Made by a program: the position numbers and the translations under genes. The notes beneath the pieces are model-generated. The model made no database searches. It worked only from the letters and a program-made list of their open reading frames with translations, and was not told where the DNA came from. Positions 1 through 19,362 of a DNA stretch of 19,362 nucleotides are shown here, piece after piece (positions within the stretch are counted from its first letter, which is position 1; the number at the start of each line of letters is the position of its first letter). The DNA is taken from the IMG/VR virus record IMGVR_UViG_2695420739_000013, positions 1 to 19,362 of that record; one strand, written 5' to 3'. Origin of the DNA: a virus (Duplodnaviria > Heunggongvirae > Uroviricota > Caudoviricetes).

Positions 1-24
1 CTTGCAGTTGCCAGACCGCAAGGT

Positions 25-119
25 GTTTTAACAAATCAAAAGGGGTTTTAATAACTGGCTCAAAGCTGAAAGCTTTCCGGAACCCCCAGCCTAGCTGGGG
101 GTTTTCTGTGCACAAAAAA
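25..119. repeat. Left copy of a 95-bp perfect inverted repeat; partner at 19268-19362. Contains an 8-bp-stem palindrome (83-101) followed by TTTT, and the last codons plus a tandem TAATAA stop of a plus-strand ORF entering from the left edge.
   Basis: Seen in sequence: the reverse complement of 19268-19362 is identical to 25-119; the match breaks at position 120 (C versus a 7th A). Confidence 0.85.
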
Positions 120-6142: not shown

Positions 6143-6331
6143 TTATCCAGCCGGTGTTTCGTTATTCAGGTACAGCGATACTTTTTTTACCGGGAGGCAT
6201 TCACCAGAAATTTTTTGCTCGTCTCTTGCCTGGAGGCAGGATTCTTTACTGGCATAAATTCTGGTAATCACATTCTGTGATTCACCCGTTATAAGAAAAA
6301 CCGTCATCATCAGTGCAAATGCTGAAGTCAT
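6143..6331 (-). CDS. Small protein translationally coupled downstream of dicB (YdfD-like by position)
   Basis: 62-aa ORF whose ATG overlaps the dicB stop (ATGA). The YdfD assignment is by synteny with the K-12 Qin dicB operon only; the sequence itself was not recognised with confidence. Confidence 0.45.
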   Translation of the reverse strand: MTSAFALMMTVFLITGESQNVITRIYASKESCLQARDEQKISGECLPVKKVSLYLNNETPAG

Positions 6332-6516
6332 TGACGTTCTCCGAAAATACCAAGTTCAAGAAGAGCAATTCGGGAAAGTATGGAATTATCATTGAGCAGA
6401 TAAGGCTCATATTTCCTCATATTAATGGCATCTTCAGTAAACTCCCGGTTACTGAGCAGAACACCAATATCAAAACAACCTTCAGACGTATTAACGTTTG
6501 GTAATAACGTTTCCAT
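6328..6516 (-). CDS. dicB: Cell division inhibitor DicB (MinC-activating)
   Basis: Internal Met of the 97-aa track ORF gives 62 aa, METLLPNVNTSEGCFDIGVLLSNREFTEDAINMRK..., matching my recollection of K-12 DicB (MKTLLPNVNTSEGCFEIGV...). GAGGA Shine-Dalgarno 7 nt upstream. Lies directly downstream of dicF. Confidence 0.75.
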   Translation of the reverse strand: METLLPNVNTSEGCFDIGVLLSNREFTEDAINMRKYEPYLLNDNSILSRIALLELGIFGERQ

Positions 6517-6534
6517 TATCGCGTCCTCAACAAT

Positions 6535-6680
6535 GAATTTTGTGATGCGGTGCCTGGTGCCTCCAGGTGACGTTAACCAGTTAACAATTAACGCCGGATA
6601 CAGAGAATCCACCCATAACACTGTTTTTGGTTTTAACTGTTCCGCGTGCGCTCAGCCGCATTCACCGCATCACAAAATTC
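6535..6680. repeat. 18-19-bp perfect inverted repeat (6535-6552 GAATTTTGTGATGCGGTG / 6663-6680 CACCGCATCACAAAATTC) enclosing ~110 bp between dicF and dicB
   Basis: Seen in sequence. In the minus-strand dicB-operon transcript the arms would form a long-range stem immediately 3' of dicF. Confidence 0.6.
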
Positions 6681-6687
6681 ACTTTAA

Positions 6688-6743
6688 AAACGGCGGCAGA
6701 GCAGTCACGGAGTAAAACTGATACCGCCAAACGTCACCAGAAA
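6688..6743 (-). ncRNA. dicF: DicF small RNA (ftsZ-repressing sRNA of the dicB operon)
   Basis: The minus-strand sequence UUUCUGGUGACGUUUGGCGGUAUCAGUUUUACUCCGUGACUGCUCUGCCGCCG followed by U-run matches the K-12 DicF sequence as I recall it, differing at about one position. Confidence 0.75.
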
Positions 6744-7019
6744 ATTGATAACAGAGGGCGTTGCAGCGGGGTTGTCACTTAAGCGTATGGTCAACCTGAC
6801 AACCCGGTGTCCTCAACGGGGGAAGGAATAACCCCGCCATACTTACCGCCGCGCCATTTCGCGGGTTGCCACAACCGGAAGCGCACGGTCGAATTAAATT
6901 TAACGACACCGTACAGTGAGACGAACTTCGCCGTGCGCTTTCGTGTTGTGTGCCTGCTTTTAACCACGTCAGGCGAGGTGGTATCCTTCTTATCCCGAAT
7001 AACCAAGAAGGAAATCTAT

Positions 7020-7220
7020 ATGACTAAAGAAGAATTTGTCTCTTATATTTTTGATAAAACGGTTGAAATGTATGCCGCTACTTACGGGTCCTGTAATCCT
7101 CTGAATAAACCAGAGGGGAAAGATGATTTCGACAAAATTTACCGCTTCTTGGAGGACCGCTATATCAAAAGGTTAGAGGACGCAGGGATCAAATCCCCAG
7201 TGAAGTCACCATTGTCCTGA
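7020..7220 (+). CDS. Hypothetical small protein (66 aa), antisense to the dicB-operon direction
   Basis: ATG preceded by AAGGAAA 8 nt upstream; protein-like composition. It is convergent with, and overlaps by 32 bp, the 3' end of the minus-strand ORF 7189-7566, so only one of the two may be real. Confidence 0.3.
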   Translation: MTKEEFVSYIFDKTVEMYAATYGSCNPLNKPEGKDDFDKIYRFLEDRYIKRLEDAGIKSPVKSPLS

Positions 7221-15236: not shown

Positions 15237-15549
15237 CTATGAATTATTATATTGTAAAGTAATCAGGTAAGATATGTTAGACAGTGAGACTATTGCCTTA
15301 CAGAATTCATTATTCTTATGGATCGCCTTTCTGACTGATTTCATATTGGCGGGGTAACGGGAGTTAAGTAGAATGGCTGCGGGTGCTTGAGGCTATCTGT
15401 CTCAGGCATGAACACCAAAGGCAGATAGAGAAAAGCCCCAGTTAACATTACGCGTCCTGCAAGACGCTTAACATTAATCTGAGGCCAATTTCATGCTAGA
15501 CACATGTAGGTTAGCCTCTTACGTGCCGGAAGGCAAGGAGAAGCAGGCT

Positions 15550-15705
15550 ATGAAGCAGCAAAAGGCGATGTTAATCGCCCTGATCGTCATCTGTTTAACC
15601 GTCATAGTGACGACACTGGTAACGAGGAAAGACCTCTGCGAGGTACGAATCCGAACCGGCCAGACGGAGGTCGCTGTCTTCACAGCTTACGAACCTGAGG
15701 AGTAA
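15550..15705 (+). CDS. hokD: Hok/Gef-family type I toxin (HokD/RelF-like), 51 aa
   Basis: MKQQKAMLIALIVICLTVIVTTLVTRKDLCEVRIRTGQTEVAVFTAYEPEE matches K-12 HokD as I recall it, differing at about one residue. The in-frame upstream extension from 15493 is what the ORF track reports as 70 aa. Confidence 0.85.
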   Translation: MKQQKAMLIALIVICLTVIVTTLVTRKDLCEVRIRTGQTEVAVFTAYEPEE

Positions 15706-18334: not shown

Positions 18335-18364
18335 TGACCATATACATTGTCCGGGGCTATATTC
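18335..18364 (+). promoter_or_regulatory. Candidate Q-dependent late promoter (pR'-like)
   Basis: TTGACC at 18335-18340, an 18-bp spacer, then TATATT at 18359-18364, immediately downstream of Q. Confidence 0.45.
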
Positions 18365-18425
18365 CTCGCGCGTCAGCAAAATCTGGCGTCGGGATTGGAA
18401 CCCCGGATATTCAACCGCGACAGAC

Positions 18426-18450
18426 ACACGCCGCGAGCGTGTTTTTTATT
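18426..18450 (+). terminator. tR'-like intrinsic terminator ending a short leader transcript (Q antitermination target)
   Basis: Seen in sequence: ACACGC-cgcga-GCGTGT then TTTTTTATT, about 60-80 nt downstream of the candidate late promoter. Confidence 0.5.
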
Positions 18451-18611
18451 GTCGTAAGCACACGCACATCTGAATAATGGTGGGGCGTATGGGGGAGCTG
18501 AAAGGCTCGCCGGTTGGTTGATCCGGTAGTTCCAACCCTGTACGTCTCACCACCCAATGATTGGAACCTGACGGTGGTGATAGTTAAATCCATCAACCAG
18601 AGGGCGTTATC

Positions 18612-19273: not shown

Positions 19274-19362
19274 GTGCACAGAAAACCCCCAGCTAGGCTG
19301 GGGGTTCCGGAAAGCTTTCAGCTTTGAGCCAGTTATTAAAACCCCTTTTGATTTGTTAAAAC
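19268..19362. repeat. Right copy of the 95-bp perfect inverted repeat (partner 25-119); truncated by the window end
   Basis: Seen in sequence: exact reverse complement of 25-119. The match reaches the final base of the window, so the repeat may be longer. Confidence 0.85.

Follow-up and report, generated by a model that had tools for sequence, protein, structure and literature searches.

A long inverted repeat between dicF and dicB very probably forms the extended closing helix of a diverged STnc100-type RNA

Background

What does a long inverted repeat do between a small RNA (sRNA) and the gene that follows it in the same operon? The question is raised by a stretch of 19,362 nucleotides from a virus of the Caudoviricetes (IMG/VR record IMGVR_UViG_2695420739_000013; the whole stretch is called the window here), whose minus strand encodes the sRNA DicF and, after a spacer of 174 nt, the gene dicB. 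An earlier note on this DNA took the repeat in the spacer, with ~110 nt between its arms, for an RNase III processing stem that makes the DicF 3' end. Our analysis found that the spacer RNA folds into five helices, P1 to P5, that P1, which is formed by the repeat, is under selection, and that the RNA is homologous to the sRNA family STnc100. Thus, the repeat is very probably the extended closing helix of a diverged STnc100-type RNA located inside an operon.

RNase III processing next to DicF is already known for Escherichia coli K-12. As related by papers that cite the original study, the main form of DicF has 53 nt and ends at a Rho-independent terminator, and RNase III cuts the full-length dicBF read-through mRNA, which gives a form of 72 nt (Faubladier, Cam & Bouche 1990, via Balasubramanian et al. 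2016, PMC5069750, and a 2022 review, PMC9438474). A second, upstream RNase III event makes the 5' end of a 190-nt DicF precursor (Ragunathan et al. 2023, PMC10448788). The related prophage sRNAs STnc100 and PasD have no known function (PMC9029176, PMC12370729, bioRxiv 10.64898/2026.05.13.724894); Hfq binding and trans-acting base pairing have been reported for both. The literature searched links neither of them to the dicF-dicB or kilR leaders, and holds no description of the K-12 dicF-dicB spacer as an STnc100-like domain.

Inverted repeat and fold of the spacer

A repeat search between 6300 and 6800 returned one inverted repeat only, with arms at 6534-6552 and 6663-6681 that are 19 nt long, 100 % complementary and 110 nt apart, so that the 18-19-bp perfect repeat which the earlier note had placed at 6535-6552 and 6663-6680 is real and its full arms are 19 nt. 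The chance expectation for such a repeat is ~5e-7 per 500 nt (~1.25e5 arm placements x 4^-19). When the minus strand was folded from 6500 to 6760, the long-range stem, whose stability the note had proposed to check, was present both in the minimum free energy (MFE) structure, at -99.8 kcal/mol (z = -5.7, no shuffle being as stable), and in the centroid. P1 pairs with a probability of ~1.0 in the window, and likewise in the other lambdoid copies described below (ViennaRNA). The 19 perfect pairs of the window helix extend to 29 pairs with one bulge; in the MFE structure, the extension beyond P1 (P0) pairs the U-run of the DicF terminator with UUGAGGACG, which contains the Shine-Dalgarno sequence of dicB.

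Within the helix, the near-palindrome GTTAACCAGTTAAC that had been remarked between the arms is genuine and belongs to the P4 hairpin: on the transcribed strand it reads GUUAACUGGUUAAC (6585-6572) and makes up the loop and the 3' strand of P4. The P4 loop (6577-6587) is invariant, and its positions 6578-6584 (UUAACUG) would form the 3' strand of a proposed pseudoknot by pairing with CAGUUAA at 6639-6633. The view of the 110 nt as the simple loop of a stem did not stand, as they are the most conserved part of the element and form a multi-helix RNA related to STnc100 (Table 1).

Table 1. Coordinates of the dicF-dicB cassette and of the helices of its spacer RNA (window positions)
Feature	Position	Strand	Basis
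DicF sRNA, 53-nt form, with terminator hairpin GGCGG...CCGCC	6691..6743	-	Rfam RF00039, K-12 alignment
P0, 5' strand: last DicF base, terminator U-run and AAA; predicted to pair with 6522-6530	6684..6692	-	MFE and centroid prediction
P1, 5' strand: repeat arm 6663-6681 and two further pairs	6663..6683	-	repeat, fold, covariation at 9 pairs
P2 hairpin UGCG-GCUGAG-CGCA, after the conserved GGUGAAU junction	6647..6660	-	alignment; 100 % of cells pair, nearly invariant
P3: 6641-6644 paired to 6595-6598, enclosing a region variable in length and sequence	6595..6644	-	two compensatory pairs
J segment CAGUUAA, 5' strand of the proposed pseudoknot with the P4 loop	6633..6639	-	invariant in 32 type-A sequences
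P4 hairpin CGUUAA[UUGUUAACUGG]UUAACG	6571..6593	-	compensatory changes in 4 of 6 pairs
P5 hairpin CCUGG[AGGCA]CCAGG, abutting the P1 3' strand	6553..6567	-	U-A to G-C in 8 sequences
P1, 3' strand: repeat arm 6534-6552 and two further pairs	6532..6552	-	repeat, fold, covariation
P0, 3' strand, with dicB Shine-Dalgarno GAGGA (6524-6528)	6522..6530	-	sequence, MFE
dicB, 62 aa	6328..6516	-	open reading frame, Pfam PF05358; the Prokaryotic Genome Annotation Pipeline calls DicB in an identical E. coli locus
Long imperfect hairpin upstream of DicF, probable RNase III site for the 190-nt precursor	6871..6950	-	fold and count

Covariation of the helices

The spacer is found in several genomic settings. 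Some part of a 501-nt query from the locus was present in 4643 of 5426 complete E. coli genomes by megablast, and the matches included the spacer alone, for instance in the Rac prophage directly 5' of kilR and in a phage-like plasmid downstream of tRNA genes. A 125-nt interior lies, at 80-84 % identity, immediately 5' of terB/tciA in phages P7 and D6, and recurs in ~170 mostly ~90-kb, non-mobilizable plasmids with a partial match of the P7/D6 type, 5' of kil in Stx phages and, at 70 % identity, in a Klebsiella phage. An alignment of seven such contexts displayed two nearly invariant blocks, a variable region between them and compensatory changes in several helices.

Scanning one genome per species, together with viral contigs, for sequence patterns yielded 240 loci with 203 unique cores. 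The subfamily with the loop UUGUUAACUGG was designated type A, and 32 of its non-redundant sequences were aligned and scored for structure. In this alignment 94.4 % of the cells form a standard pair, versus 31-44 % with the partners slid by 1-3 columns; 16 pairs (61 cells) have changed on both sides, and none of 500 shuffles reached the observed values, which holds for all five measures. Compensatory changes occur in each of P1, P3, P4 and P5, those of P3 being G-C to A-U and A-U to C-G. In P1, they affect nine pairs, and 84-91 % pairing is retained despite alignment slips, as expected of a helix under selection; furthermore, copies of the Scandinavium, Pseudescherichia and Klebsiella type have a long P1 of different sequence, kept by compensatory changes.

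Relation to STnc100

In a permissive Rfam search, STnc100 (RF02076) matched 6539-6679 of the minus strand, and no match was obtained on the other strand. Its score of 39.8 bits (E-value 1.6e-7 in the region, 1.1e-5 in the window as a whole) is below the STnc100 gathering score of 47 bits, and we therefore regard the element as a diverged relative of STnc100 rather than a curated member. The remaining type-A copies lie between 35.5 and 47.8 bits, with one of them passing the cut-off, whereas typical STnc100 sequences (type B) reach 50-90 bits. The alignment to the model reproduced the helix layout that had been derived independently, with P2 as the counterpart of the first hairpin of the model. 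In both the window element and STnc100, the closing helix is followed by GGUGAAU, the first hairpin, a variable region, a hairpin with a ~10-nt loop and the UCACCNGGAGGCACCNGGCACC hairpin that adjoins the 3' strand of the closing helix. This last motif, which is that of P5, is a signature common to the two; both are prophage-borne, and both possibly form a pseudoknot between J and loop.

There are differences as well. The first hairpin is GCGGCU.AGCGCAC in the window element and CCCCCU..GCGG.GGGG in STnc100, and the closing stem has ~8 bp in typical STnc100 compared with 20-29 bp in type-A lambdoid copies. Unlike STnc100, the window-type element has the invariant loop UUGUUAACUGG and lies inside an operon directly 5' of an open reading frame (ORF). 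A sigma-70-like site immediately precedes the stem in several type-B copies, an intrinsic terminator lies 30-60 nt beyond the stem in many of them, and the stand-alone copies have no downstream ORF. The window element has neither a promoter-like site of its own (scan of 6250-7050) nor a terminator, and runs into the Shine-Dalgarno sequence of dicB, so it does not have the make-up of a stand-alone gene.

Type-B copies carry, past the first hairpin, a segment whose sequence is complementary to that of the penultimate hairpin loop and covaries with it, as in the J/loop pairs ACUGGAUA/UAUCCAGU, CUGGUGA/UCACCAG and GACUGAA/UUCAGUC. The energy of the J-loop duplex averages -9.65 kcal/mol when both strands are taken from the same copy versus -7.54 kcal/mol for different copies (Mann-Whitney p = 1e-14). 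This covariation supports a pseudoknot across the STnc100 superfamily, which we consider probable and which is absent from the consensus structure line of RF02076. As further observations on type-B STnc100, tandem arrays of three or four copies are present in Pantoea (loci L042, L061, L069 and L073), and copies abut or follow tRNA genes in Citrobacter braakii (L072) and Salmonella diarizonae (L010); the dicB-type copies of P7 and D6 also follow tRNA genes.

The element in phages and prophages

Among the scanned sequences are 74 unique type-A copies, all of one orientation. With a single exception, they precede a predicted Shine-Dalgarno sequence and an ORF that starts 34-81 nt after the core. 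These ORFs encode DicB, KilR, TerB/TciA, a Rha/Ash fusion and several small membrane proteins. P1 has 20-29 bp in lambdoid early operons versus 9-14 bp in the copies of P1-family phages, and the long stem hence seems to have been added only in the lambdoid copies that are embedded in an operon. Such a restriction is expected if the role of P1 in these operons is recognition by RNase III.

Upstream of the element, lambdoid early operons have a terminator hairpin and U-run that belong either to DicF or to a DicF-like RNA. The KilS-kilR leader of Rac (KilS, b4833; Bar et al. 2021) has the same layout, consisting of an sRNA with a DicF-like terminator, the element and the gene of an FtsZ inhibitor. 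Its element is ~80 % identical to that of the window and also has a long P1, with a bulged A and one G-U pair in the 3' strand; it differs in the upstream sRNA, which is KilS (98 nt, K-12 1418405-1418502, locus L250), and in the downstream gene, kilR. The terminator hairpin 5' of the Rac element (locus L002, 2951-3006) gave a sub-threshold DicF match of 39 bits and is the 3' end of KilS, so that KilS-element-kilR in Rac mirrors DicF-element-dicB in Qin. The modules around the element are also shuffled: dicF is combined with the element and kilR, a KilS-type terminator with the element and dicB, and either of the two with a Rha/Ash gene. Such mosaic joints were found on viral and genome contigs (L167, L217, L221, L149, L025 and L131), which suggests recombination within the conserved element. 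The element is the conserved junction where lambdoid phages exchange the sRNA on its upstream side and the toxic gene on its downstream side.

RNase III and the K-12 locus

The Qin prophage of K-12 has the operon order, the 174-nt spacer and the inverted repeat of the window and is ~96 % identical to it from dicF across the spacer to the middle of dicB; the comparison that the earlier note had suggested thus returned a spacer of the same length and of nearly identical sequence. In K-12, dicF is annotated at 1649382-1649434 and dicB starts at 1649609, with nothing annotated between them. Whereas the repeat of the window is perfect (19 of 19), that of K-12 has one C-to-U change per arm and consequently two G-U pairs, so that its arms still pair fully in RNA of the dicB sense but no longer do so in DNA. 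The last DicF base, G in the window and C in K-12, adds one P0 pair in the window.

The length of 72 nt given in the citing papers, counted from 6743, puts the 3' end of the longer DicF at 6672, ten bases into the 19-nt 5' arm and 19 nt past the end of the terminator. The earlier proposal that an RNase III stem generates the DicF 3' end therefore applies to the alternative 72-nt form, but not to the main 53-nt form, which by the same accounts ends at the terminator. The window helix has the length of an RNase III substrate (~20 bp of near-continuous double-stranded RNA), and it is likely that RNase III cuts the window allele as it does that of K-12. An rnc-dependent RNA-seq coverage site at K-12 1649470 lies in the dicF-dicB spacer and is marked as known (Gordon et al. 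2017, PMC5371410 Table S1); it corresponds to ~6655 of the window. The kilR-sieB site of the same study (1418510) was considered as a cut in the Rac element and discarded, as it is located just 5' of KilS, outside the element.

With regard to the upstream processing event, 190 nt counted back from 6691 lead to 6880, which is within the 3' arm of the long imperfect hairpin upstream of DicF; the minus strand from 6860 to 6960 folds at -39.4 kcal/mol (z = -3.5). Together with P1, this hairpin would flank DicF with two RNase III-type stems.

DicF, DicB and the operon

The identity of the genes on either side of the spacer agrees with what the earlier note had stated. The Rfam model of DicF (RF00039) matched 6691-6742(-) with 72.5 bits, above its gathering score of 48, and 52 of the 53 bases of DicF (6743-6691) are those of K-12, the exception being the last base (G versus C); the near-exact DicF had been given as 6688-6743, of which 6688 takes in three U of the terminator tail. 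DicF has the expected intrinsic terminator, GGCGG...CCGCC followed by GUUUUU, and the expected location upstream of dicB in the early operon of a lambdoid prophage. A simple terminator scan did not flag this terminator because its loop is long and bulged. As the sequence 5' of the terminator is identical to that of K-12, the same base pairing, by which DicF together with Hfq represses ftsZ and manX, is to be expected.

The dicB ORF, which the note had placed correctly, runs from an ATG at 6516 to a stop at 6328, and its 62-aa product matched Pfam PF05358 over residues 1-62 of 62 with 125.5 bits (curated cut-off, 27 bits). Overall it is 63 % identical to K-12 DicB; the N-terminal halves of the two hardly differ, and the C-terminal half belongs to another allele. 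The operon order, namely DicA-like repressor, DUF1391, DicF, dicB, DUF1482 and exonuclease, is that of a Qin-like lambdoid prophage. An identical 501-nt stretch is present in a lambdoid prophage adjoining yccA in E. coli Z1322HEC0003, which encodes integrase, exonuclease, DUF1482, dicB, (unannotated) dicF, DUF1391 and a DicA-like helix-turn-helix repressor, and continues with a Cro-like protein, YdaT, replication genes, hokD, rem, rusA and Q; Pfam searches with the window's own ORFs agree with these assignments.

No minus-strand sigma-70-like site was found by a promoter scan between 7050 and 6250, which fits co-transcription of dicF and dicB from an upstream, dicBp-like promoter; a promoter of their own for dicB or for the spacer element was rejected on this basis. 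We also rejected a coding role of the spacer. A 97-aa ORF with a GTG start (6328-6621, minus strand) extends dicB in frame across the element, but the lengths of dicB-linked spacers differ by +13, -8 and +14 nt, which are not multiples of three, and the frame is thus not conserved as a coding sequence.

Discussion

Taking these results together, we consider it likely, if less so than the structural assignment itself, that the spacer is an STnc100-like domain whose P1 is long enough for RNase III to cut it on the early-left operon transcript. The spacer folds as a domain in which P1 encloses P2-P5 and a probable 7-bp pseudoknot of CAGUUAA with the P4 loop, and P1 would continue into P0, where the U-run is paired with the Shine-Dalgarno sequence of dicB; a helix of such length is an RNase III substrate. 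Transcripts that stop at the DicF terminator would give 53-nt DicF, and read-through transcripts would be cut by RNase III in P1 at ~6672/6671 to give 72-nt DicF. RNase III leaves 2-nt 3' overhangs, and by this rule the partner cut would fall at ~6542/6541, generating a dicB mRNA with a 25-nt leader and breaking the helix, including the P0 pairing. Both cuts together would release an STnc100-like core of ~130 nt. The site of the partner cut, an influence on the translation of dicB and a function of the core once released are our inferences.

Long helices that form from sequences on either side of a functional RNA or between cistrons, and that RNase III cuts, separate the products of one transcript in the lambda N leader, in the spacers of T7 early mRNA and in the stems flanking 16S and 23S rRNA. 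Our model resembles these cases but differs from them in that RNase III would excise a pseudoknotted domain of the STnc100 type and would also create an alternative 3' end for an Hfq-dependent sRNA.

Several observations weigh against this explanation. P2 and the pseudoknot are invariant in type A, so that covariation cannot test them within the subfamily, and the score of the window element falls short of the STnc100 cut-off, as stated above. The strand signal is weak, with 62 G-U versus 34 A-C cells over all pairs; since this excess is not decisive, the strand was assigned from the substitutions in K-12, from the Rfam match to one strand only and from the constant orientation towards the downstream ORF. 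P0 and the occlusion of the Shine-Dalgarno sequence are MFE predictions, and P0 is invariant in sequence among the dicB-linked copies, which likewise places it beyond the reach of covariation. The evidence of cleavage comes from K-12 only, the 72-nt end being taken from citing papers and its position from counting. Furthermore, the site at 1649470 is represented by 26 reads in a long and noisy table, and no wild-type reads cover the spacer (PMC5371410), which is a poor fit to a stable excised core, although a small core RNA may have been lost in library preparation.

Could a plain hairpin account for the same observations? On that account only the stem matters, as the RNase III site that makes the DicF 3' end, and the 110 nt are an incidental loop. 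The stem is indeed long enough and stable, and the 72-nt DicF end, in the citing papers' account, maps inside it. The interior, however, is more conserved than the stem and has invariant loops and covarying helices; it occurs with a closing stem of only 9-14 bp in P7, D6 and the ~170 P1-like plasmids, as well as in stand-alone STnc100 genes with promoter-like sites and terminators; and the main DicF 3' end, by the same secondary accounts, is the terminator and not the stem. We thus regard a plain hairpin as quite unlikely. We give as little credence to a DicF 3' end that is the by-product of a translational gate in cis, in which the helix hides the ribosome-binding site of dicB and cleavage or unfolding licenses its translation. 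The MFE structure does pair the U-run with UUGAGGACG and its Shine-Dalgarno sequence, the Shine-Dalgarno and ORF follow the core in nearly all unique copies, and several of the ORFs encode toxic or division-inhibiting proteins (DicB, KilR and, by annotation, TciA). Yet the pairing with the Shine-Dalgarno sequence is not conserved across gene types, as the kilR helix ends beside it; P0 offers no covariation, and the stand-alone STnc100 copies have no ORF to be gated. Such a gate would nevertheless be compatible with an STnc100-like domain processed by RNase III.

A perfect 19-bp terminal repeat around ~110 bp, found in several genomic contexts and at mosaic joints (dicF with the element and kilR; a KilS-type terminator with the element and dicB), might instead point to a DNA element, either a miniature transposable element with terminal inverted repeats or a recombination site. 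This seems highly improbable, because the flanks, AAAG and TTGT, contain no target-site duplication, the orientation is constant with an ORF directly downstream of the element, substitutions in the arms are compensatory or lead to G-U pairs, with the K-12 arms fully paired only as RNA, and the internal helices and the pseudoknot covary, with the RNA-family match on one strand only.

Two further candidates were tried and rejected. A riboswitch does not agree with the functionally unrelated downstream genes (DicB, KilR, TerB, Rha/Ash and small membrane proteins) nor with stand-alone copies that lack a downstream gene. In addition, ARAGORN finds no tRNA- or tmRNA-like gene in the window.

Returning to the STnc100-like domain with a lengthened P1, a broader proposal is that the element is a portable pseudoknotted module between an sRNA terminator and toxic early genes (dicB, kilR, tciA, Rha/Ash), and that one spacer gives rise to three products. 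These would be the tailed 72-nt DicF, a free RNA of ~130 nt that might for instance bind a host or phage protein, and a toxic-gene mRNA with its ribosome-binding site freed. The division inhibitor would then be licensed only upon read-through of the terminator followed by cleavage by RNase III. We put this forward tentatively and think it rather unlikely in its full extent.

The dicF/dicB cassette of cell-division inhibitors and its processing by RNase III are already textbook knowledge, and the new part of our study, a modest one, is the annotation of the spacer as STnc100-type. STnc100 ranks among the enterobacterial sRNA families that are annotated most often, and the DicF-dicB and KilS-kilR spacers, both unannotated in K-12, contain a diverged domain of this type. 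The fold is thereby located in a well-studied and tractable K-12 operon that is amenable to derepression through Rem/DicA and to rnc mutants, and the comparison suggests a pseudoknot for the Rfam consensus structure, which lacks it.

Other features of the window

The two ends of the window, 1-103(-) and 19284-19362(+), are inverted, partial copies of STnc490 (RF01405). In the matching genome, the gene of an IS200-family transposase lies just beyond STnc490 at the right end, and at the left end the window does not match the flank of that genome, where rlmI would be expected. The window may be a contig with a copy of a repeated element at either end. Rfam searches also returned a cluster of isrK, c4-a1b1 and C4 antisense RNA at 18357-18557(+), a C4-type cluster that in P1 and P7 constitutes the immI-type antirepressor control and here lies in a lambdoid prophage, and the sok antitoxin RNA adjoining hokD at 15381-15555(+).

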